Positions 5,743 through 38,344 of a stretch of DNA of 38,344 bases are shown piece after piece. The stretch is from a virus. Its lineage: Duplodnaviria; Heunggongvirae; Uroviricota; Caudoviricetes. Below the pieces are notes generated by a model. The model did not search any database. It saw only the letters and a program-made list of their open reading frames with translations, and was not told the origin of the DNA. Position 1 is the stretch's first letter. Each line of letters opens with the position of its first letter. The DNA lies in IMG/VR virus record IMGVR_UViG_2740892016_000005; one strand, written 5' to 3'. The translations under genes were made by a program, and so were the position numbers.

Positions 5743-7194
5743 TTATTTTATTTTGCTTACTATATTTGTAATAAGTGGGTCAAATTTCTCATCAATAATT
5801 TCAATATATTTTTTTATTGCTAAAGTTCTAATTACTTCCTCCTCACATTCTGCTTCTTTAGCAATTGCTTGAGTGTAATTGTGATGATCACTAATCCCTT
5901 CCTTTTTTATTAACCAATCAAAATCAATATGATACTCCTTGTAGAGGAATTTTTTTACTTCCTCATGTTGAAATACTTCTACTTCTGGTGGCCTATTGCC
6001 AGGGAAAGAAAATAAATCATCTTTAATGTTTTCTCCAACATCTGCATCTCTTACGGCAATAACATTAAGGCCTGCTTTCTTGAATACCTCGACTGCTTGT
6101 CGGACTGCATCTTTATCTCCAATATCAGTGATTTGAATGGATTTAAGAATGTCTCTCCGCTTTGCTCTAATTACTTCACTAAGTAAAACTTTTGCAAACT
6201 GGTCTTCTACGCAAATATGCAGCCCTTTAAACTGCCCATCAGACAGTATTGATCTCACATGAGTTGTTGAAATTCCATCTTTGATATAGACACCAGTCTG
6301 ATCTCTAATAAGTAATTTTCGTGCATCAGGAGGTAAAGCATTTAATATCACACTTGAGTGTGTTGATAATATTATTTGATGTTTTCTACGTTGACATACT
6401 TCCATTAAATATTTTGCAAATTCATACTGTGCGCTTTCATGAAGAGATGTTTCTGGTTCTTCTAGTACGAAAAGACTTTGCTCTGGAGCTGTTTCAAGCA
6501 TATCAACCGTATAAAGAACTCTTCCTTCGCCAAACCCCATGTTATTTTCAGAATAAGAATACCCAAGTCTTTCAACAATACCAATTTCTGAACGACGTGC
6601 TCTATGAGAAATTCCTTGGAATGCGATATCATCATATGGATGACCTATTATTTTTGCCATCTTCAATATTACTGAATGGTCGACGCTTCTTCTCTCTGTT
6701 AAATCAAAGTCTTTACCGCCATAAACACTTATATCTCTACGTTCTACTTTTGGAATATAGACAGTAAAACCAATGTAAAAACAGTGTCTTTCTGGTTGTC
6801 TTTTATATCCAGACCAAGAAGACTTTATGCGAGTGACAGTCACATCTTGTGTTTTCGTTGAATCATTTGTTTCATATTTATAAATGACACTGGCGTCATT
6901 ATCGAAAGGGGCTGGATCGGCTTTAGATACAGGGAAAAAATCTTTAATATATAATCTCTTATATTCACGGGCTGTAACTGGTTTTTTATATGCGCATATT
7001 GCTAACTGCCCAAGAGTGCTTTTCCCAGCGCCGTTTAGCCCTGATATTGCAGTTACCGGAAAATTTATATTTAATGTTAGTTTTTTTATTCCTCGAAATC
7101 CATTTATCTCTAGACTTTTAATTACGGAGCCAAAGTTTGAGTATCTATTTTTATCAAAGTACATGCATTTTAGTATATTTTTTATGTCTGACAT
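5743..7194 (-). CDS. ABC-type (AAA_15/21-like) ATPase with C-terminal TOPRIM-like domain; OLD/PARIS-like candidate defence nuclease
   Basis: 483 aa. Walker A GLNGAGKST; Walker B/D-loop SLFVLEEPETSLH; H-loop ILSTHSS; C-terminal acidic motifs LHICVEDQ and VIAVRDADVGE consistent with TOPRIM. Gene is AT-rich relative to flanks; RBS aggaaag; own promoter-like signals. Confidence 0.85.
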   Translation of the reverse strand: MSDIKNILKCMYFDKNRYSNFGSVIKSLEINGFRGIKKLTLNINFPVTAISGLNGAGKSTLGQLAICAYKKPVTAREYKRLYIKDFFPVSKADPAPFDNDASVIYKYETNDSTKTQDVTVTRIKSSWSGYKRQPERHCFYIGFTVYIPKVERRDISVYGGKDFDLTERRSVDHSVILKMAKIIGHPYDDIAFQGISHRARRSEIGIVERLGYSYSENNMGFGEGRVLYTVDMLETAPEQSLFVLEEPETSLHESAQYEFAKYLMEVCQRRKHQIILSTHSSVILNALPPDARKLLIRDQTGVYIKDGISTTHVRSILSDGQFKGLHICVEDQFAKVLLSEVIRAKRRDILKSIQITDIGDKDAVRQAVEVFKKAGLNVIAVRDADVGENIKDDLFSFPGNRPPEVEVFQHEEVKKFLYKEYHIDFDWLIKKEGISDHHNYTQAIAKEAECEEEVIRTLAIKKYIEIIDEKFDPLITNIVSKIK

Positions 7195-25980: not shown

Positions 25981-28900
25981 ATGGGTAAAGGCAGCAGTAA
26001 GGGGCATACCCCGCGCGAAGCGAAGGATAACCTGAAATCCACGCAGTTACTGAGTGTGATCGATGCCATCAGCGAAGGGCCGATTGAAGGTCCGGTGGGT
26101 GGATTAAAAAGCGTGCTGCTGAACAGTACACCGGTGCTGGACAGTGAGGGGAATACCAACATCTCCGGTGTCACGGTGGTGTTCCGGGCAGGTGAGCAGG
26201 AGCAGACACCGCCGGAGGGATTTGAATCCTCCGGTTCCGAGACGGTGCTGGGTACGGAAGTGAAATACGACACGCCGATCACCCGGACCATCACGTCTGC
26301 AAACATCGACCGTCTGCGCTTTACCTTCGGTGTGCAGGCACTGGTGGAAACCACCTCAAAGGGTGACCGGAATCCGTCGGAAGTCCGCCTGCTGGTTCAG
26401 ATACAGCGTAACGGTGGCTGGGTGACAGAAAAAGACATCACCATTAAGGGCAAAACCACGTCGCAGTATCTGGCCTCGGTGGTGGTGGATAACCTGCCGC
26501 CGCGACCGTTCAATATCCGGATGCGCAGGATGACACCGGACAGCACCACAGACCAGCTGCAGAACAAAACGCTCTGGTCGTCATACACCGAAATCATCGA
26601 TGTGAAACAGTGCTACCCGAACACGGCACTGGTCGGCGTGCAGGTGGATTCGGAGCAGTTCGGCAGCCAGCAGGTGAGCCGTAATTATCATCTTCGCGGG
26701 CGCATTCTGCAGGTGCCGTCGAACTATAACCCGCAGACGCGGCAATACAGCGGTATCTGGGACGGGACGTTTAAACCGGCATACAGCAACAACATGGCCT
26801 GGTGTCTGTGGGATATGCTGACCCATCCGCGCTACGGCATGGGGAAGCGTCTCGGTGCGGCGGATGTGGACAAATGGGCGCTGTATGTCATCGGCCAGAA
26901 TTGCGACCAGTCGGTGCCGGATGGCTTTGGTGGCACGGAGCCGCGCATCACCTGTAATGCCTACCTGACCACACAGCGTAAGGCGTGGGATGTTCTCAGT
27001 GATTTCTGCTCGGCGATGCGCTGTATGCCGGTATGGAACGGGCAGACGCTGACGTTCGTGCAGGACCGACCGTCGGATAAGGTGTGGACCTATAACCGCA
27101 GTAATGTGGTGATGCCGGATGATGGCGCGCCGTTCCGCTACAGCTTCAGCGCCCTGAAGGACCGCCATAATGCCGTTGAGGTGAACTGGATTGACCCGGA
27201 TAACGGCTGGGAGACGGCGACAGAGCTTGTGGAGGACACGCAGGCCATTGCCCGTTACGGTCGTAACGTCACGAAGATGGATGCCTTTGGCTGTACCAGT
27301 CGGGGGCAGGCACACCGCGCCGGGCTGTGGCTGATTAAAACAGAACTGCTGGAAACGCAGACCGTGGATTTCAGCGTCGGCGCAGAAGGGCTTCGCCATG
27401 TACCGGGCGATGTTATTGAAATCTGTGATGATGACTATGCCGGTATCAGCACCGGTGGTCGTGTGCTGGCGGTGAACAGCCAGACCCGGACGCTGACGCT
27501 CGACCGTGAAATCACGCTGCCATCCTCCGGTACCACGCTGATAAGCCTGGTTGACGGAAGTGGCAATCCGGTCAGCGTGGAGGTTCAGTCCGTCACCGAC
27601 GGCGTGAAGGTAAAAGTGAGCCGTGTTCCTGACGGTGTTGCTGAATACAGCGTATGGGGGCTGAAGCTGCCGACGCTGCGCCAGCGACTGTTCCGCTGCG
27701 TGAGTATCCGTGAGAACGACGACGGCACGTATGCCATCACCGCCGTGCAGCATGTGCCGGAAAAAGAGGCCATCGTGGATAACGGGGCGCACTTTGACGG
27801 CGAACAGAGTGGCACGGTGAACGGTGTCACGCCGCCAGCGGTGCAGCACCTGACCGCAGAAGTCACTGCAGACAGCGGGGAATATCAGGTGCTGGCGCGC
27901 TGGGATACGCCGAAGGTGGTGAAGGGTGTGAGCTTTATGCTTCGCCTGACCGTGGCAGCGGATGACGGCAGTGAGCGGCTGGTCAGCACGGCCCGGACGA
28001 CGGAAACCACATACCGCTTCAGGCAGCTGGCGCTGGGAAGCTACAGGCTGACAGTCCGGGCGGCAAATGCCTGGGGGCAGCAGGGCGATCCTGCATCGGT
28101 ATCGTTCCGGATTGCCGCACCGGCAGCGCCGTCGCGGATTGAGCTGACGCCGGGCTATTTTCAGATAACCGCCACGCCCCATCTTGCCGTTTATGATCCG
28201 ACGGTACAGTTTGAGTTCTGGTTCTCGGAAAAGCGGATTGCGGATATCAGGCAGGTTGAAACCACAGCCCGCTATCTTGGCACGGCGCTGTACTGGATAG
28301 CTGCCAGTATCAATATCAAACCGGGCCATGATTATTATTTTTACATCCGCAGTGTGAACACCGTTGGCAAATCGGCATTCGTGGAGGCTGTCGGTCGGGC
28401 GAGCGATGATGCGGAAGGTTACCTGGATTTTTTCAAAGGCCAGATAACCGAATCCCATCTCGGCAAGGAGCTGCTGGAAAAAGTCGAGCTGACGGAGGAT
28501 AACGCCAGCAAACTGGAGGAGTTCTCGAAAGAGTGGAAGGACGCCAACGATAAATGGAATGCCATGTGGGGCGTCAAAATTGAGCAGACCGAAGACGGCA
28601 GGCATTATGTCGCGGGGCTTGGCCTTAGTATGGAGGATACGGAGGAAGGCAAACTGAGCCAGTTCCTGGTTGCCGCTAACCGTATCGCGTTTATTGACCC
28701 GGCAAACGGGAATGAAACGCCGATGTTTGTGGCGCAGGGTAACCAGATATTCATGAACGAAGTGTTCCTGAAGTATCTGACGGCTCCCACCATTACCAGT
28801 GGCGGCAATCCGCCGGTATTTTCCCTGACACCGGACGGGCGGCTGACGGCGAAAAATGCCGATATCAGCGGTAACGTGAATGCGAACTCCGGGACGCTCA

Positions 28901-29379
28901 ATAATGTCACGATTAACCAGAACTGTCGGATTCTGGGAAAACTGTCTGCCAACCAGATTGAAGGTGATATTGTCAAAACGGTGGGAAAAGCCTTTCCGAG
29001 AAATGGCAGTTATGCCAGCGGTACAATAACGGTCACTGTGTACGATGACCAGGCTTTTGACCGTCAGATAGTAATCCCACCCGTTCTGTTTCGCGGTGGT
29101 AAGCATGAAAACTTCAACAGCAACAACCAACAGTCATACTGGTATTCAACCTGTAAGCTGCAGGTGCTGAAGAACGGACAGGAAATCTTTCAGCAACCCG
29201 CGACGGATGTCAGCAGGGTATTTTCATCCGTCATTGATATGCCTGCCGGACACGGTCATGTCACCCTGACTTTCAATGTTTCTTCATATGGTGCTAATAA
29301 CTGGACGCCAACGACCAGTATCAGCGACCTTCTTGTTGTCGTGATGAAGAAATCAACAGCCGGTATCAGTATCAGTTGA
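25981..29379 (+). CDS. J: Tail tip / host specificity protein J
   Basis: 1132 aa; lambda gpJ-like over most of its length; C-terminal ~150 aa diverge from lambda J as I recall it. Confidence 0.95.
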
Positions 29380-29446: not shown

Positions 29447-30046
29447 ATGCGTAAATTATGTGCTGTTATTCTGTCTGCAGTAGTCTGGCTGGTCGCCGCT
29501 GGTACGCCAGCGAGTGCAGCAGAGCATCAGTCCACACTAAGCGGCGGGTATCTTCAGTCCCATACTGATATGCCCGGCAACGATGACCTGAAGGGCATTA
29601 ACGTGAAATACCGTTATGAATTTACGGACACGCTGGGGCTGGTGACGTCATTCAGTTATGCCAATGCCAAAGATGAGCAAAAAACGCATTACAGCGATAC
29701 CCGCTGGCATGAAGATTCAGTGCGTAACCGCTGGTTCAGCATGATGGCGGGGCCATCTGTACGCGTGAATGAATGGTTCAGTGCTTATGCGATGGCGGGT
29801 ATGGCTTACAGCCGTGTGTCGACCTTCTCCGGGGATTATCTCCGCGTAACTGACAACAAGGGGAAAACGCACGATGTGCTGACCGGAAGTGATGACGGTC
29901 GCCACAGCAACACGTCTCTGGCGTGGGGGGCTGGCGTGCAGTTTAACCCGACCGAATCCGTGGCCATTGACCTTGCTTATGAAGGTTCCGGCAGTGGCGG
30001 CTGGCGCACTGACGGGTTCATCGTGGGTGTTGGTTATAAATTCTGA
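29447..30046 (+). CDS. lom: Lom/Ail-family outer-membrane beta-barrel protein
   Basis: 199 aa; signal peptide and C-terminal GYKF; matches lambda Lom. Confidence 0.9.
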   Translation: MRKLCAVILSAVVWLVAAGTPASAAEHQSTLSGGYLQSHTDMPGNDDLKGINVKYRYEFTDTLGLVTSFSYANAKDEQKTHYSDTRWHEDSVRNRWFSMMAGPSVRVNEWFSAYAMAGMAYSRVSTFSGDYLRVTDNKGKTHDVLTGSDDGRHSNTSLAWGAGVQFNPTESVAIDLAYEGSGSGGWRTDGFIVGVGYKF

Positions 30047-30099: not shown

Positions 30100-30110
30100 G
30101 TGGAGTGGAT

Positions 30111-32468
30111 ATGGCAGCAGTAAAAATCTCAGGTGTGCTGAAAGATGGTGCGGGAAAACCAATACAGAACTGCACTATTCAACTGAAGGCAAAGCGTAAC
30201 AGCACTACGGTACTGGTCAACACGGTGGCCTCTGAAAATCCGGATGAAGCCGGGCGTTACAGCATGGATGTTGAGTATGGCCAGTACAGCGTCACCCTGC
30301 TGGTTGAAGGTTTTCCGCCTTCACATGCCGGGACCATTACCGTCTATGAAGGTTCCAGACCAGGTACGCTGAATGATTTTCTCGGTGCCATGACGGAAGA
30401 GGATGTCATGCCGGAGGCATTGCGCCGTTTTGAGGAAATGGTGGAAGAAGCGGCACGCAACGCCGAAGCCGCCTCTCAGAGCGCAGCGGCGGCAAAGAAA
30501 TCCGAAACTGCAGCGGCATCATCGAAGAACGCGGCGAAAAGCTCAGAAACGAATGCAGCTAACAGCGCCCAGGCGGCAGCGGCCTCGCAGACTGCATCGG
30601 CAAACTCCGCGACAGCAGCCAAAAAATCAGAAACCAACGCGAAAAATAGCGAGACAGCCGCAAAGACGAGCGAAACCAACGCAAAGTCCAGCCAGACGGC
30701 AGCGAAGACCAGCGAAACGAATGCCAAAGCCAGTGAAACTGCGGCGAAAAATAGCCAGAATGCAGCAGCCGAAAGCGAGAGCGCGGCAGCCGGTTCTGCG
30801 ACTGCAGCAGCTGGATCAGCAACTGCTGCGGCTAACAGCCAGAAAGCAGCGAAGACGAGCGAAACTAACGCAAAGTCCAGCCAGACGGCAGCGAAGACCA
30901 GCGAAACGAATGCCAAAGCCAGCGAAACTGCGGCGAAAAACAGCCAGGATGCAGCAGCCCAAAGCGAGAGTGCCGCAGCTGGTTCTGCAACAGCGGCAGC
31001 TAATAGCCAAAAAGCTGCAAAAACCAGTGAAACTAACGCAAAGACGAGTGAAACAAAAGCAGCAGCCAGCGAGACAGAAGCAACGTCAGCCGCAACAAGA
31101 GCAGAGAATGCAGCCCGGATTGCAGAAGATGCCGCTGATCCTGCTTCTGTCCCTCCGCTTCCTGATATCTGGCTACCCTTGAATGATTCTCTGGAAGCGA
31201 TAACAGGGTATGCCCCGGGCTATAAAACAATAACCATCGGCAGTGATGAAATAACAATGCCTGTTAATGGCATATGCCAATTTAGCCGGGCTTCATCTGC
31301 AACGTATATTGATAAGTCCGGGCATATTACCGTGGCAGGGAATAACGTTCCTCGTTTTGAAAAATATGGTTTGCTGATAGAGAATCAGCGAACAAACATG
31401 TTCGTAAATAGTTTTAATCCTGATGCGTGGAATAAAAGCGGTGGTATATCTGTAACATCATCAACAGATGAATTTGAGTTTAAATATGGACGTTTCACAG
31501 TAGGAAGTGAGATAGCAGGAACGACAACAGGGAGAAATATATGCACAGTTGCTGGTAATAAAGGCATAGATGTGACTGGCGATGATCAGTACAGTAAAGG
31601 TCCGTATGTTACCGCGTCGTTCAGGGTAAGAAGTGATCTCAATGTTCGCGCACGTATCCGTTTTGAACGGTATAACTCGGAAGGATACACTTTCCTTTGT
31701 GACGCCTATTTGTCATTACAGACTCATGAACTACAAATTACGGGTGGTAATGCCCAGCTATTAACAGCAAACTTTGAAATCGACCCTGGTAGTGGATGGA
31801 TATATTTTCAGGCAACACTGAAATGTCTGCCAGAATGGGGAATGGTTGGTACGCAGCTGCAAATTGCAGCCGACAGAGCAGTGGGGGCTTTTGCAACAGG
31901 TGACTGGATAGAAGTAACCACCCCGCAATTCGAGTATGGTGCTTGTGCAACTTCCTTTATCATAACGACAACAGAGCCAGCGACTCGTGCATCAGATTTA
32001 TGTAAATTTCCGCTGATGAAAAATATGTATACCATGCCTTTTACGTTCATGGTGGAAGTCCATAAAAACTGGTTTATTTCTCATAATGCTGCACCGCGTG
32101 TCATTGATTCAGAAAATCACCAGTCCGGAGGCCCATTTATTATGGGGTTTGGTTCTTCTGGAACTATCAGTCAGGATGGTTATTCGTATTGCGATATAGG
32201 CGGGGCTAACCGGCGTGTATATGAGTCATGCGGAGTAAGAGATCTCGTTATGGGATTCAGGGTTAAGGCTGACGGCATGACATGCTCATTTGCAAATAAG
32301 CATATAAGCACAGAAACAAAAACAGTATGGAAATATATTCGTGAAGCTGCCGTGATTCGTATTGGGGGGCAAACGACGACAGGATTGCGACACCTTAATG
32401 GTCATATAAAAAATCTCCGTTTCTGGAACAGAGCATTGTCAGATACGCAGCTTAAGGAATACGTATAA
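30111..32468 (+). CDS. stf: Side tail fibre protein (Stf-like) with repetitive shaft and divergent distal domain
   Basis: ORF 30105..32468 trimmed to ATG 30111 (RBS ggag). N-terminus lambda Stf-like (MAAVKISGVLKDGAGKPIQNCTIQLKAKRNSTTV...); Ala/Ser/Thr-rich repeats; C-terminal part AT-rich and not lambda-like. Confidence 0.85.
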   Translation: MAAVKISGVLKDGAGKPIQNCTIQLKAKRNSTTVLVNTVASENPDEAGRYSMDVEYGQYSVTLLVEGFPPSHAGTITVYEGSRPGTLNDFLGAMTEEDVMPEALRRFEEMVEEAARNAEAASQSAAAAKKSETAAASSKNAAKSSETNAANSAQAAAASQTASANSATAAKKSETNAKNSETAAKTSETNAKSSQTAAKTSETNAKASETAAKNSQNAAAESESAAAGSATAAAGSATAAANSQKAAKTSETNAKSSQTAAKTSETNAKASETAAKNSQDAAAQSESAAAGSATAAANSQKAAKTSETNAKTSETKAAASETEATSAATRAENAARIAEDAADPASVPPLPDIWLPLNDSLEAITGYAPGYKTITIGSDEITMPVNGICQFSRASSATYIDKSGHITVAGNNVPRFEKYGLLIENQRTNMFVNSFNPDAWNKSGGISVTSSTDEFEFKYGRFTVGSEIAGTTTGRNICTVAGNKGIDVTGDDQYSKGPYVTASFRVRSDLNVRARIRFERYNSEGYTFLCDAYLSLQTHELQITGGNAQLLTANFEIDPGSGWIYFQATLKCLPEWGMVGTQLQIAADRAVGAFATGDWIEVTTPQFEYGACATSFIITTTEPATRASDLCKFPLMKNMYTMPFTFMVEVHKNWFISHNAAPRVIDSENHQSGGPFIMGFGSSGTISQDGYSYCDIGGANRRVYESCGVRDLVMGFRVKADGMTCSFANKHISTETKTVWKYIREAAVIRIGGQTTTGLRHLNGHIKNLRFWNRALSDTQLKEYV
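30490..31090 (+). repeat. Tandem coding repeats within stf
   Basis: Short KTSETNAK-type units plus two long near-identical copies of ~188 bp (about 30660-30847 and 30848-31015). Confidence 0.7.
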
Positions 32469-32737
32469 TGCGGGATATAACATTACGGTTCGATAACAGA
32501 GAACAGTTTAACGCAATTGTATATGACAGTGGCCTGTTCAGTCTTGAAGAAGAAAACGGGGTTCTTGTTGATGTTATTGGCTGCATTATCGATTACGAGG
32601 AGCCAGAAAACGAAAGATGTACAGGCATTGATCGCGGTGGTTTTTTCGTAAACATGAGGATTGTTGATAGCAGTAAAAACATATCTTCTTTAATGCCTTT
32701 CATTACGACAGATCAGCATGTAAGGACATGGGCTTAA
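32468..32737 (+). CDS. Hypothetical protein (tail-fibre accessory?)
   Basis: 89 aa; ATG overlaps the stf stop (TAATG); no motif recognised. Confidence 0.45.
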   Translation: MRDITLRFDNREQFNAIVYDSGLFSLEEENGVLVDVIGCIIDYEEPENERCTGIDRGGFFVNMRIVDSSKNISSLMPFITTDQHVRTWA

Positions 32738-32749
32738 TGGAGTAAGACA

Positions 32750-33433
32750 ATGGTTACAAAAACAGTAATTCCGGGAGACATCACCACGCTAAAGGGAGAT
32801 ATTTCCTCAATTAACGGAAAAGTATCAACGCTTCAGACTGAGATGACCAGTGCAAAGCAGGATATCAGCTCCAGATACACAAAAACTGAAGTTGATAATA
32901 AGCTGAAAAACAAAGTGGAAGTGAACGATCTGGAAAGTGGTCGTTATGGCGGAGATTTTTATCCACTGACAGGTCGTGAAGCGTTTTATTTATGGAATTT
33001 GGCCACGACTACAGCGGCGGCAAACCTTTATCTTAATCCTGACCCTGCAATTTCGTCTGTGCTGCGGTCAACATCGTCTATCCGCTATAAACATTCAGTA
33101 GAGACGATAGATTCAGAGCACGCCGATCTCATTTTCAAGATGCGCCCTGTGTGGTACAGGTCGCAATGCGAAAATGACAGGCGCGATTGGGGATTCTATG
33201 GATTGATTGCCGAGGAAGTAGGAGAAATTGCCCCCCAGTTTGTACACTGGCGATCAGCTAACGAAGATGATGCACCGGAAGCTATTTCCAGCAATGGCCT
33301 TGTTGCCGAAGGTGTAATGTACGAACGTCTGGTTGTTCCACTGATTCACCATATCCAGAAACTGACTGAAAGAGTTGATGAACTTGAGTCAGAATTGAAG
33401 TTGTTATCAACTTCCCGAAGCGATATCGGATAA
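32750..33433 (+). CDS. Short tail fibre/spike-like protein with C-terminal S74-type intramolecular chaperone domain
   Basis: 227 aa; C-terminal ~120 aa (SSIRYKHSVETID...DLIFKMRPVWY...GFYGLIAEEVGEIAPQFV...VMYERLVVPLIHHIQKLTERVDELESELKLL) follow the pattern of endosialidase-type autoproteolytic chaperone domains. Confidence 0.7.
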   Translation: MVTKTVIPGDITTLKGDISSINGKVSTLQTEMTSAKQDISSRYTKTEVDNKLKNKVEVNDLESGRYGGDFYPLTGREAFYLWNLATTTAAANLYLNPDPAISSVLRSTSSIRYKHSVETIDSEHADLIFKMRPVWYRSQCENDRRDWGFYGLIAEEVGEIAPQFVHWRSANEDDAPEAISSNGLVAEGVMYERLVVPLIHHIQKLTERVDELESELKLLSTSRSDIG

Positions 33434-33443
33434 AGGAGGAGTA

Positions 33444-33731
33444 ATGGATATAACACCTTTTCTTCATGCGCTTTGTGCTGTGGCTGCGCAGGTACTGATT
33501 GGTCTTTTTACCGGAAACTGGGCTTACGGGGCGATAGCCGGTTGTACATTCTTCATTGCGCGGGAACACACCCAGGCAGAATATCGCTGGATTGAAATGT
33601 TCGGGCATGGCAAGCGGATTAACATGCCGTGGTGGGGCGGTTTTGATCCACGTGCATGGGATGTGGCAAGTCTGATGGATTTTGCGGTGCCGGCGGTGGC
33701 GTGTCTGCTGGTCTGGCTGTTTATCCGTTAA
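33444..33731 (+). CDS. Small integral membrane protein, function unknown
   Basis: 95 aa; strong RBS aaggagg; predicted hydrophobic segments at both ends (LCAVAAQVLIGLF, AVPAVACLLVWLFI). Confidence 0.5.
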   Translation: MDITPFLHALCAVAAQVLIGLFTGNWAYGAIAGCTFFIAREHTQAEYRWIEMFGHGKRINMPWWGGFDPRAWDVASLMDFAVPAVACLLVWLFIR

Positions 33732-34532: not shown

Positions 34533-36311
34533 TCACCCCCTAGATCTTGCTGAAAGCTCATCTTTATAAGCCATTCTTGGCGTGTAAAAATTATGGAATG
34601 CCTTACCTATTGCACCATTGAAAAGCTTAAGCAATGGTTTATTGCTCCCTGCGTTTAAAATATTCCTCATTGCTATACCAGGGTATGGATCTATGTAATA
34701 TATTTGTTTGATCCCTAATTGATACGCTTTTTTAGAACATAATTCACAAGGGCTTGCTGTTGTGAACAAAAAACCATTCTGTATACCAACGCCACCATAC
34801 TTAGATATTTGTAAGAAAGCATTCTCTTCAGCATGAAGTGATCTTGTAAAAACTTGATTAGCGTTAGATTTTATTTTGTCAATAATAGCAAACTCATCAT
34901 CATTTAACTTATGTTCGACCCGTAGATCTTCTTTGTATTTATCATCAAGGATATTATTCCATTCTGTTTTAAAACAAAATGGAGCTCTCATTCCTTTATT
35001 TTTAACATCTAAAAAAATAATCTTAGTGCTATCTATTTTTCGAATGAAACTATTTTCGTTCTTTTCGAATTCAGAGTAAGCAATATCATCAATCCCCTCA
35101 GACAAATCAAACCTATCCCTTAAAGAGCAAGGAACTTGACCACTTGGTACATCATTCCAACCAATAGACTTAATTGAAAATGAACTATCAGATACTGCAG
35201 CGCCTACCTGCCTGGATATACAACCAGAGTTCAACTTAGCTGTATATGCTATCTGCATGCAACGTTCAACATTTGATGGAGTTATTATACCAGGACGCTT
35301 CATTAATGAAGTGAATTTAATTAATTGATTAGCCAATCCTGAGTACCGACAAACAACATTTTCCTCTTCCGGATTCTCAACATAGATGTCTGATATTTCT
35401 AAACAAGACTGTATATTCTGATATATATATGATGACTTCTCATCCAAAGATGATTTACGGTATTCTTTTGCATCAATATCTTTTATCTCAGCATCAGTTA
35501 AACCTTGTTCTCTAAGCCTTTGATGCCTGTAATGCTCTTCTGTAGAAACAGCCATTAAATAAAATGATGAGTATCTATCTTGGAAGTATGTTGCTTCGAA
35601 CGGATTTCTTATAGCATCAATAACTATATAAATAGGTTTCTTTTCTCCAGTTTTTGTGTTCTTTTCTTTTGCTAAGGTTCTTAATCTTTGAATTATATCA
35701 TTTATTTTTTTAGGAAGAAAAAAACCATGGAAATCATCACTAAATGAACTGTCATGGTACATCCCACTAGATCTATAATTATTACCTATAGCTTGATATA
35801 GCTTTATATAGTCAGCCTTGTTCTTAAATATGGATTTAATTTGTGTATTCGCTTTTATTAGATATTCATTTATGAATTTTATCTTATCATCTATATCATG
35901 ATCAGAGCTTTCATCTTTAGCTTTAATTTCTTTTAGTATAGATTCAAGATCATTAACTGTTGACTCTAGGACTCTTTGGTCATTACCTAACTCCGTCACT
36001 TCCCGAATAAATTTATTCAGCTTACCATCAAAGTCCTTTGATAAACACAATGTCAGTATGGAACTTGCTTGTATTTTTATAAATGGAACCCATGACACGG
36101 AAAAATATTTAAATAGAACCCGCTCTTTTCTTTCTTCATTCGACTTAGGGTAATCACCGTTAAATAGAGAATGCTTTATCTCACTTGATTCTGATGACAG
36201 TATATTAGAAACTGTTGAACAGCCTGACCCCGTCCTCCCTGTTAATCCTATAATTAGGAAATCATCATCTTCACTATATATTTTACTCAGTGCGTCATTA
36301 TAAAAACCCAT
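34533..36311 (-). CDS. P-loop NTPase / dCMP-deaminase fusion protein; AvcD/DCD-like candidate nucleotide-depletion defence
   Basis: 592 aa. N-terminal deviant P-loop GLTGRTGSGCST; C-terminal deaminase motifs ERCMQIAYTAKLNSGCISRQVGAAV, HAEENA and PCELC (zinc ligands). AT-rich; RBS ggag; own promoter-like -10. Confidence 0.9.
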   Translation of the reverse strand: MGFYNDALSKIYSEDDDFLIIGLTGRTGSGCSTVSNILSSESSEIKHSLFNGDYPKSNEERKERVLFKYFSVSWVPFIKIQASSILTLCLSKDFDGKLNKFIREVTELGNDQRVLESTVNDLESILKEIKAKDESSDHDIDDKIKFINEYLIKANTQIKSIFKNKADYIKLYQAIGNNYRSSGMYHDSSFSDDFHGFFLPKKINDIIQRLRTLAKEKNTKTGEKKPIYIVIDAIRNPFEATYFQDRYSSFYLMAVSTEEHYRHQRLREQGLTDAEIKDIDAKEYRKSSLDEKSSYIYQNIQSCLEISDIYVENPEEENVVCRYSGLANQLIKFTSLMKRPGIITPSNVERCMQIAYTAKLNSGCISRQVGAAVSDSSFSIKSIGWNDVPSGQVPCSLRDRFDLSEGIDDIAYSEFEKNENSFIRKIDSTKIIFLDVKNKGMRAPFCFKTEWNNILDDKYKEDLRVEHKLNDDEFAIIDKIKSNANQVFTRSLHAEENAFLQISKYGGVGIQNGFLFTTASPCELCSKKAYQLGIKQIYYIDPYPGIAMRNILNAGSNKPLLKLFNGAIGKAFHNFYTPRMAYKDELSARSRG

Positions 36312-36400: not shown

Positions 36401-37295
36401 ATATTACGAATCTGCAACTTTCACACACGATTTTTCATCGGATGTACTAATATTAGCAAGCGGAGCTTTCTTTTCCCAGACAGCTTCCATCCGCTGCATC
36501 GCGGCAACCCGTGCGTAGCCGATGTCGATTAAGTAATACATCACCCAGAGATACTCCCGTAACCTAAATCATCTTCAAAACGATATATATCTCTGACTTT
36601 CACGTATAGTACGACATCTCGCGGCACATGGCATACACGGACTCTTAAGCCACCTTAATCGCCTGATTCAGGGAATTCACTGCAGGCTTCTACTGCTCCA
36701 GCCCAGTTTGTTTTAACTCCTGCTCAACCTGAGTCAAAGCTGTACTAACTGATTTTTTGTCTGTCTCAGTCATGTTGCCGGAAGCACTGTCCAGCTCACG
36801 GATAACACCACTGGGCTTGTATTTGAAATCGCGTGACTATGAGCATTACGATCTTGATCCGCTGCACTGGAAGGATTATTACGACGTGTGGTTAACCCAG
36901 CAAAGGGCATTCTGAGGACTTGTGACGCAATCTACTGTCTTACCGTCTGGTGGAGATATTCCTTGCGATGCGCAAGAAGTTTAAAGGTGTCATTCCACCC
37001 AATAAATTCTGACCTGTTTCCAATTGATTAACACACTGTAAAGCGAGTAATGCCCCACGTCTGTATCACAATTGCTAACTTCCGTTTCTCGCACAGAGAG
37101 GACCTTCAGTTCAGTCCGATGGTCTGCTCTGTGCCAAAAGCGGACGTTAAGCTTACCAACTCATATTTTAAGGTCATAGGTGCGTATAAACGAAGTGCCG
37201 CGCTTAGGAGTAGTGAATTTACAGACTTACAAAATCATTTATTTCAGGCCAATTTATGTAATGGCATAATCAGGTTGGTGAAAGAGAGGGCGGAA

Positions 37296-37880
37296 ATGGA
37301 TAAAAAATTTAAAAATCAGATAGTAGATAGCGATATTGCACTTTTATTGCTTAAACACAGGAAGGCTCGCAATTTGACTGTAACAGAGCTTGCTCAACGA
37401 TCGGGCGTCAGTCAGGCCATGATTAGTAAGATTGAACGAGGCATCTCCAGCCCTAGTGCAACTATCCTTAGCCGCCTGGCCAACGCCATGAATGTAACGC
37501 TATCTAAACTCTTTGCAGAGCTTGAGCAACATCAGAATTCCCTGGTTCGTGTTGCTCATCAGCAACAGCACTGGACGGATGAGCAATCAGGCATCACCCG
37601 TTGGTCTTTGTCTCCTGCGGGGGCATGCCCGGAACTGATCAAAGTTGAAATCCCTGCAATGGGTGAGCTGACGATACCCGCCTCCGCAAATGAGCATCTT
37701 TCCGGGCAAACGCTTTGGATGATGAGTGGCAGCCTTGATTTTCGAGTCAAAAATCAGACCCATCATTTACGTGCCGGTGACTGTCTTGCCCTTACCTTTG
37801 CAAGCGAGTACCAAATGAGCAATCCAGATAGTGAGCAGAGCTGTTCTTACATCGTGGCTTTTAGCCAAAAAAATCAATGA
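37296..37880 (+). CDS. XRE-family HTH transcriptional regulator with C-terminal cupin domain
   Basis: ORF 37050..37880 trimmed to ATG 37296 (RBS gagagggcgg). HTH LTVTELAQRSGVSQAMISKIERG; C-terminal beta-rich cupin-like region. Probably host-encoded. Confidence 0.7.
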   Translation: MDKKFKNQIVDSDIALLLLKHRKARNLTVTELAQRSGVSQAMISKIERGISSPSATILSRLANAMNVTLSKLFAELEQHQNSLVRVAHQQQHWTDEQSGITRWSLSPAGACPELIKVEIPAMGELTIPASANEHLSGQTLWMMSGSLDFRVKNQTHHLRAGDCLALTFASEYQMSNPDSEQSCSYIVAFSQKNQ

Positions 37881-37900: not shown

Positions 37901-38344
37901 TTACATGTTATTGGCCATTCTCAGATGCAACAAGGGGTATGGCCTTCCCTGATTATCCAGCTCGGAACGCCCTGATACCTGAAAACCCATATGCTGATAA
38001 AACCCTACAGCCTGCTGGTTTTGTTCATTTACATCAACGCTTAGCTCTGGATGCAGCGCCAGTGCATGAGAGATCAAACGTTTTCCGACGCCAAGTCCGC
38101 GAGCAGAGCCTGCTACAAAAAGTGCCTCCAGATGCCCCTCATGCAAAAACATAAATCCTAGCGGTTGGTCATCCTGATTTGTTGCAACCCATACAGGAGT
38201 TTCTGAGAAAAAGCCGATAACTTCTTTTTCGATTTCTTGTCGGTCATGACCTGTAAGAAAGTCGTGGGTAGCATCCACTGAACTCTTCCAGATTTGTATG
38301 ATCTCTGATGCTTCAGATGGTCGTGACATTCTGATATCTAACAT
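37901..38344 (-). CDS. GNAT-family N-acetyltransferase
   Basis: 147 aa; acetyl-CoA-binding motif region ARGLGVGKRLISHAL; the start codon abuts the window edge, so the true 5' end may lie outside. Divergent from the regulator gene. Confidence 0.75.
   Translation of the reverse strand: MLDIRMSRPSEASEIIQIWKSSVDATHDFLTGHDRQEIEKEVIGFFSETPVWVATNQDDQPLGFMFLHEGHLEALFVAGSARGLGVGKRLISHALALHPELSVDVNEQNQQAVGFYQHMGFQVSGRSELDNQGRPYPLLHLRMANNM

Follow-up and report, generated by a model that had tools for sequence, protein, structure and literature searches.

Intramolecular chaperone domains act on the polypeptide that lies N-terminal to them, and their cleavage serves as a folding sensor (PMC3742443). In MYRF, where the catalytic dyad is S578/K583, the C-terminal fragment starts at the catalytic serine, as it does in endosialidases (PMC3742443). 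Among phage side fibres, Gp24 of the Tequintavirus IrisVonRoten (Bas32) has been described as a distal fibre of T shape that ends in an intramolecular chaperone (Humolli et al. 2025, PMC11990801). The proximal fibre of this phage has a galectin-like domain, and AlphaFold-Multimer models attach Gp24 to it (PMC11990801). T5 pb1 and DT57C LtfA are L-shaped fibres with a C-terminal intramolecular chaperone, as PMC11990801 relates from Garcia-Doval et al. 2015.

Here we describe a much shorter protein encoded in the window, by which we mean the whole 38,344-nt stretch of viral DNA that was analysed. A sequence-only reading had taken this 227-aa ORF for a fibre-like protein made mostly of an S74-type chaperone domain, possibly a second fibre or a trans-acting folding module. 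In the literature on virion proteomics, in-trans chaperone activity and ECOR-induced PhiR phages, we found no published characterisation of the short protein. We propose, with a probability of roughly 0.6, that its product fills the third slot of a mobile cassette, as the distal subunit that follows Stf and a ~90-aa protein.

Gene order and conservation of the 227-aa ORF

The fibre region of the window has the gene order J, lom, stf, orf89, 227-aa ORF and orf95, with the following features:

25981–29379: J
29447–30046: lom
30105–32468, plus strand: stf, proximal side tail fibre, 787 aa from the GTG at 30105 (the RefSeq start is the ATG at 30111)
32468–32737, plus strand: orf89, small conserved cassette protein (89 aa) between stf and the 227-aa ORF
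32739–32742, plus strand: Shine-Dalgarno (SD) sequence GGAG of the 227-aa ORF, read from the sequence, 7 nt before the ATG
32750–33433, plus strand: 227-aa ORF, putative precursor of a minimal distal fibre subunit, from its ATG start to and including the TAA stop
33444–33731, plus strand: orf95, 95-aa hydrophobic protein (PHROG 1443, unknown function)

The stf stop and the orf89 start overlap by 1 nt (TAATG), and spacers of 12 nt (with GGAG) and 10 nt (with AGGAGG) precede the 227-aa ORF and orf95, respectively. No terminator-like site follows the stf/orf89, orf89/227-aa ORF or 227-aa ORF/orf95 junctions; the sole plus-strand site of this kind in the window lies inside stf. In most cassettes of this type, orf89 and the gene after it share one frame, 9 or 12 nt apart, with no further in-frame stop (window 32735–32752 and the equivalent junctions in loci L002, L004, L007, L009, L093, L096 and L097). 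This arrangement is probably a conserved SD spacer. A read-through fusion of orf89 with the S74 ORF was considered and set aside, as the Met and the SD sequence are conserved and the KarlJaspers and KarlBarth cassettes are out of frame.

The 227-aa ORF is a real gene under purifying selection. By Megablast, 746 of the 5426 complete E. coli genomes carry it, E. coli B REL606 among them, and the ORF was intact (227–234 aa) in 80/80 related IMG/VR loci. Homologues of the same architecture (221–269 aa, 56–61% identity) occur in ~45 lytic T1-like phages (Drexlerviridae, Tempevirinae), with dS saturated between the lambdoid and the lytic Drexlerviridae short forms. Pairwise dN/dS among lambdoid alleles ranged from 0.15 to 0.35 for aa 1–108 and from 0.05 to 0.23 for the chaperone domain. 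A gene remnant was rejected in view of the ORF's own SD sequence and ATG, the uniformly intact loci, the conservation in lytic phages and dN/dS values well under 1.

Pfam and PADLOC searches returned no match for orf95. A homologue (90% identical in mEp460_4F5) trails the stf module in many lambdoids, e.g. phage 21, mEp460 and ev207, with or without the S74 gene. Just downstream of the tail-fibre operon, the prophage accessory region encodes a 592-aa anti-phage dCTP deaminase (34533–36311, minus strand; PADLOC dCTPase, 424.5 bits; NCBIfam antiphage_deaminase, 370.8 bits, slightly below the cut-off of 400). Further on lie an HTH-domain protein with weak PADLOC HTH_VI and RmrA N-terminal matches (37050–37880, plus strand) and an acetyltransferase (37901–38344, minus strand). 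An integrase pseudogene comes next in the RefSeq record, which makes this region the variable end of the prophage.

Chaperone domain, stalk and tip of the encoded protein

The protein can be divided into the following parts:

32750–32794, plus strand: N-terminal anchor, aa 1–15 (MVTKTVIPGDITTLK), a proposed docking peptide, delimited by invariant residues and a common motif
32780–32908, plus strand: coiled-coil stalk, aa ~11–53, from heptads, AlphaFold2 (AF2) helices and indel phasing
32930–33073, plus strand: predicted mature tip, aa 61–108 (LESGRYGGDFYPLTGREAFYLWNLATTTAAANLYLNPDPAISSVLRST; ~48 aa), from conservation and homology to Stf ends
33074–33430, plus strand: S74 intramolecular chaperone domain, aa 109–227 (119 aa), from Pfam PF13884, AF2 and Foldseek
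33074–33091, plus strand: predicted autocleavage site and dyad, Ser109 (33074–33076) to Lys114 (33089–33091), from S-x4-K spacing and conservation

By sequence and predicted fold, the 227-aa protein is a member of the S74 family. Pfam Peptidase_S74 (PF13884) matched aa 109–165 over profile positions 1–57 of 58 with 26.9 bits (cut-off 22 bits), which upholds the earlier assignment of the C-terminal ~120 aa to an S74-type chaperone domain, here delimited to 119 aa; PHROG 3299 matched the protein at E = 6e-132, well past what chance would give. The predicted Ser/Lys dyad context (SSIRYK) and GLIAEEV-type motif were both found, at aa 109–114 and 151–157. Ser109 and Lys114 have the family's S-x4-K spacing at the domain start and are invariant in an alignment of 77 homologues, together with R106, S107, T108, R132, G151, A154, E155, E156 and Y191, and the cleavage motif VLRSTSSIRYKH was found in 80/80 IMG/VR loci. 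The two invariant arginines, R106 and R132, are candidates for the conserved oxyanion-stabilising arginine of the family. The S-x4-K spacing is that of the dyads in MYRF (S578/K583) and in endosialidases; the bond expected to be cut joins Thr108 to Ser109. The predicted mature part (aa 1–108) agrees with the ~100 aa estimated previously.

The AF2 monomer has pLDDT >90 over aa ~110–227. Its terminal helix (191–226) carries L205, V209, L212, L216 and L219 with a/d-type spacing, in keeping with the terminal coiled coil read from the sequence. The best Foldseek matches in the PDB were all intramolecular chaperone domains, namely those of MyRF (7dc3, E 3e-5), endosialidase (3gw6) and GA-1 (3gud), and phmmer aligned chain 8hqz_d of an L-shaped tail fibre with aa 103–216. 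When the 77-sequence alignment was used as a profile against the PDB, most of the signal came from upstream repeats in the longer homologues, which matched Bdellovibrio fibre-like proteins, and nothing was gained for the short protein. The chaperone module is common to the 3653 representative protein clusters that matched at E ≤ 0.001; in an exhaustive search it was almost always C-terminal, in proteins of 240–1284 aa.

The stalk has heptad a/d positions at I11, L14, I18, I21, V25, L28, M32, A35 and I39, and AF2 places helices at aa 12–40 and 45–53. Stalk length differences among homologues are all multiples of 7 aa (7, 14, 28 or 35), which, together with the heptad pattern, argues for a structural coiled-coil stalk; the tail-needle coiled coil of P22 gp26 is also weakly similar. 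Within the tip, G64, G68, F70, P72, L73, T74, A78 and Y80 form an invariant set specific to the short family, and aa ~85–108 are conserved in nearly all 77 homologues. AF2 confidence was low to moderate over the tip (pLDDT 43–71), which we attribute to the monomer alone having been modelled, and the model was poor for aa 56–110. No recognisable receptor-binding domain was found in the mature part (aa 1–108). Residues ~38–227 (38/42–217/227) share 57–61% identity with the final ~190 aa of P0237 (735 aa) and P0239 (958 aa), which are side fibres made of a single chain and carry phage_tail_N and Phage_fiber_2 domains; the tip is homologous to the last mature residues of both. From this match to Stf ends, the window protein amounts to the common anchor joined to the module that ends ordinary Stf fibres.

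The third gene of a mobile fibre cassette

The two genes preceding the 227-aa ORF have homologues across a broad range of phages. Stf consists of an N-terminus matching Pfam phage_tail_N (222 bits), an Ala-rich repeat shaft and a globular C-terminal region of ~440 aa, and contains an NCBIfam GTA_spike_fiber domain at aa 424–629 (48.2 bits). Identity is 47% over 761 aa with bas32_0022, the 796-aa proximal fibre of IrisVonRoten, and 42% with the lateral tail fibre of PeterMerian. Its C-terminal 437 aa matched 218 phage records spanning Drexlerviridae, Dhillonvirus, Queuovirinae, Vequintavirinae-sized genomes and T5-like phages. The long Ala/Ser/Thr-rich shaft (30400–31200, plus strand; SETNAK.S.TAAK-type units) gives rise to long ORFs that are spurious, both in its other frames and on the minus strand. 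The orf89 product shares 31–33% identity with the 92-aa genes of IrisVonRoten, PeterMerian and mEp460 (33% with bas32_0023, 92 aa). A search with orf89 only gave 4 near-identical matches, and a profile of cassette homologues was required for the wider set of 331, with lengths of 92–114 aa among the 120 matches listed; examples lie at 6710–6988 in L007, 6296–6574 in L093 and 4293–4571 in L094. No fold or function could be assigned to this ubiquitous ~90-aa protein, which could be the true adaptor or chaperone of such fibres.

The order stf, ~90-aa gene, S74 gene recurs in the induced lambdoid phages PhiR55_1, PhiR49_1 and IdasGreatGrand, and likewise in PeterMerian, KarlJaspers, IrisVonRoten, KurtStettler, HMD-P4 and a 60.8-kb metagenomic contig; the S74 gene was the third of the trio in every case examined. 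Among the IMG/VR loci, the ~90-aa gene precedes the ORF in 80/80 and Stf is present in 78/80. All third-slot proteins open with a common anchor motif, M-x-T-x-T-x-I-P-x-D-I-x-x-L-K, beyond which they diverge. The short family shows no variation at M1, T3, T5, I7, P8, D10, I11, T12, L14 and K15. The anchor is present in all short forms and in the third-slot proteins of PhiR11_1 (346 aa), HMD-P4 (333 aa), KurtStettler (510 aa), IrisVonRoten (Gp24, 574 aa) and KarlBarth (98 aa). Gp24 begins with MVTKTVIPTDITKLK and the window protein with MVTKTVIPGDITTLK, their first 8 residues being identical. The gap between the end of the Stf C-terminal domain and the start of the motif is 285–294 nt in at least 16 phage records, matching the ~90-aa gene in length. 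By gene order, homology and anchor, the 227-aa gene belongs to a cassette of the IrisVonRoten type. The cassette is mobile, occurring in lambdoid prophages, Drexlerviridae, Queuovirinae, Dhillonvirus and T5-like phages.

Several records with this cassette deserve separate mention. In the induced phage PhiR47_1 (L005, 4351–5391), a third gene of the 346-aa type is split into 294-aa and 37-aa ORFs by an apparent frameshift within the S74 domain. Coliphage-type Stf, ~90-aa and anchor cassettes were also found in OR848352.1, OR849447.1 and OR847733.1 ('Listeria phage LM 4-...') and in MG065676.1 and MG065652.1 ('Campylobacter phage'), which are probably mislabelled or contaminated entries.

Conservation of the N-terminus together with exchange of the distal part classically marks a receptor-binding subunit that docks. 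In PhiR11_1, Stf is 98.7% identical to that of the window and orf89 is the same, whereas the 346-aa third protein diverges completely after ~22 residues and continues as a T5-like receptor-binding domain that has an S74 domain of its own; BLASTP aligned nothing beyond the anchor, the S74 domain included. Mature lengths in the third slot range from 105–108 aa (PeterMerian, window) to 463 aa (IrisVonRoten). We hypothesize that the 227-aa precursor trimerises from its C-terminus via the S74 domain (aa 109–227), which would set the register of the tip (aa 61–108) and of a three-stranded coiled coil (aa ~11–53). After folding, Ser109/Lys114 would cut the Thr108–Ser109 bond and the chaperone trimer would be discarded. 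The mature 108-aa trimer would then dock by its anchor (MVTKTVIPxDIxxLK) onto the distal end of Stf, directly or via orf89, and give the side fibre a short tip or branch at its end; presence of the trimer in the virion and any receptor are part of this proposal. The gene would represent a near-minimal allele of a slot that is filled elsewhere by 333–574-aa fibres with large receptor-binding domains. The second fibre suggested by the sequence-only reading is retained in this refined form, as the distal subunit of a three-gene cassette whose anchor is common to larger distal fibres.

The same reading had placed the gene where tfa is expected after stf in lambda. That description was imprecise: the gene directly after stf is orf89, and what holds is that the whole stf–tfa module has been exchanged for another module. 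The 227-aa ORF, orf89 and orf95 had no match to Tfa families in Pfam, PHROGs or NCBIfam. A tfa-like place at the end of a fibre operon that encodes no Tfa-family protein is what would be expected if the S74-trimerised protein were a trans-acting assembly factor, nucleating or clamping the C-terminal end of the Stf trimer through its anchor and coiled coil and functionally replacing lambda Tfa, whether or not it remained in the virion. The missing receptor-binding domain fits this view, and so does sequence conservation. Between lambdoid and T1-like cassettes, identity is 58–61% for the S74 protein, 38–42% for Stf and 31% for the ~90-aa protein. The S74 protein is the most conserved member, as expected of a general assembly factor; a specificity determinant would not usually be so conserved, and a role in assembly or structure would fit as well. 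BASEL GenBank records moreover label the S74 gene of PeterMerian and KarlJaspers 'putative lateral tail fiber chaperone', but the 510-aa KurtStettler protein bears the same label, which therefore probably echoes the Pfam name 'Chaperone of endosialidase'. Several observations speak against action in trans. Domains of this type are described as acting on their own N-terminal polypeptide (PMC3742443), and a pure chaperone would not need the invariant cleavage site or the conserved mature part, both of which are under purifying selection. Nearly the same Stf is paired in PhiR11_1 with a third protein alike only in its anchor. In mEp460_4F5, ev207, ev243, ev017 and Lambda_2E9, a homologous Stf and the ~90-aa gene are followed by orf95 with no third gene; as these lambdoids are viable, the third gene is accessory. 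The tip and chaperone module also end ordinary single-chain Stf proteins. The trans-acting folding module raised in the sequence-only reading is for these reasons disfavoured, and we regard an assembly factor acting in trans as unlikely.

Absence of the third gene from some lambdoids, and the larger proteins that fill the slot elsewhere, could instead indicate a degenerate stub, i.e. what a deletion left of a larger distal fibre, now lacking its receptor-binding domain and persisting as a passenger or mere socket filler. That lambda side fibres are dispensable in the laboratory also speaks for this reading. A stub is nevertheless hard to reconcile with a short architecture kept between lambdoid prophages and lytic Drexlerviridae across saturated dS, with the intact ORF in every IMG/VR locus, with the low dN/dS of the mature part and with the block of invariant tip residues that only the short family has; compact-genome lytic phages, too, retain the gene. 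We therefore consider decay an improbable explanation.

The stronger constraint on the chaperone half than on the mature half might be taken as a sign that one cleavage product has a non-structural role, e.g. the mature trimer as a regulatory cap that covers the end of the fibre up to its release; work cited in PMC11990801 proposes transient 'chaperone caps' at the fibre tips of other phages. Constraint on the chaperone domain is, however, expected from its folding and catalytic role alone, and such a role seems very unlikely. It is also unlikely that the mini-protein is an S74-driven trimeric clamp or cap instead of a receptor binder. In that reading the self-removing chaperone domain would build a tiny coiled-coil trimer, and the anchor of this trimer would act in trans on the Stf end to lock the Stf trimer or mask the docking socket, the clamp or cap being interchangeable with true distal fibres. 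If true, a normally cis-acting folding domain would power a trans-acting factor of fibre assembly or regulation.

A distal third-slot subunit, our preferred reading, would clarify a gene carried by roughly every seventh complete E. coli genome and by many lytic coliphages, where its current labels vary between 'hypothetical', 'tail fiber domain-containing' and 'lateral tail fiber chaperone'. Anchor and cassette together offer a simple annotation rule for distal side-fibre subunits in lambdoid, T1-like, T5-like, Dhillonvirus and Queuovirinae phages. The anchor junction is a natural plug-and-play point for engineering side-fibre specificity, and the minimal allele would be a handy small model for chaperone-domain-driven folding and autocleavage.

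Comparison with known fibre systems

The closest counterpart is the Gp22–Gp23–Gp24 cassette of IrisVonRoten (bas32_0022, 0023 and 0024), with the same three-gene order and homologous Stf and orf89 proteins. Like Gp24, the window protein has the anchor (MVTKTVIP.DIT.LK) and an S74 end, and the alignment between them is limited to the anchor (aa 1–28) and the S74 region (aa 105–219), with 27% identity outside the anchor. Gp24, however, is a 574-aa protein with a Gp12-like RBD1, a T5-like RBD2 and a 463-aa mature part, whereas the window protein has a 108-aa mature part and neither RBD, and is not one of the T-shaped, dual-RBD fibres.

Other systems share its parts in different arrangements. The single-chain lambdoid Stf proteins P0237 and P0239 end in the same tip and S74 module with an identical cleavage motif, but there the module is fused to a phage_tail_N and Phage_fiber_2 shaft, whereas in the window it has a gene to itself and brings a docking anchor of its own. 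T5 pb1 and DT57C LtfA (PDB 8hqz chain d) resemble it at the cleavage site (TSGIEYK vs TSSIRYK in the window), in the GVIAEE/GLIAEE motif and in a common 'YTKTEVD' shaft motif; these fibres attach to the tail collar and exceed 1000 aa, about five times the size of the window protein. The K1F endosialidase (3gw6), the GA-1 neck appendage (3gud) and the MYRF ICA (7dc3) share the predicted fold, the Ser/Lys dyad and the C-terminal helix. Their domains serve to fold large clients, either triple-beta-helix or enzymatic domains, or to release a transcription factor; the client of the window S74 domain, by contrast, would be a coiled coil and tip of ~100 aa. With lambda Stf–Tfa, the locus shares the neighbourhood J, lom, stf and the general task of producing a side fibre, but it has no sequence or profile similarity to lambda Tfa (Caudo_TAP), and folding is expected in cis and not via a separate chaperone. 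The published RBPseg atlas already contains a 'coiled-coil N-terminus plus S74' fibre class (TC7). The window protein is a near-minimal example of a known fibre class, which is not conceptually surprising and leaves current concepts of fibre assembly unchanged.
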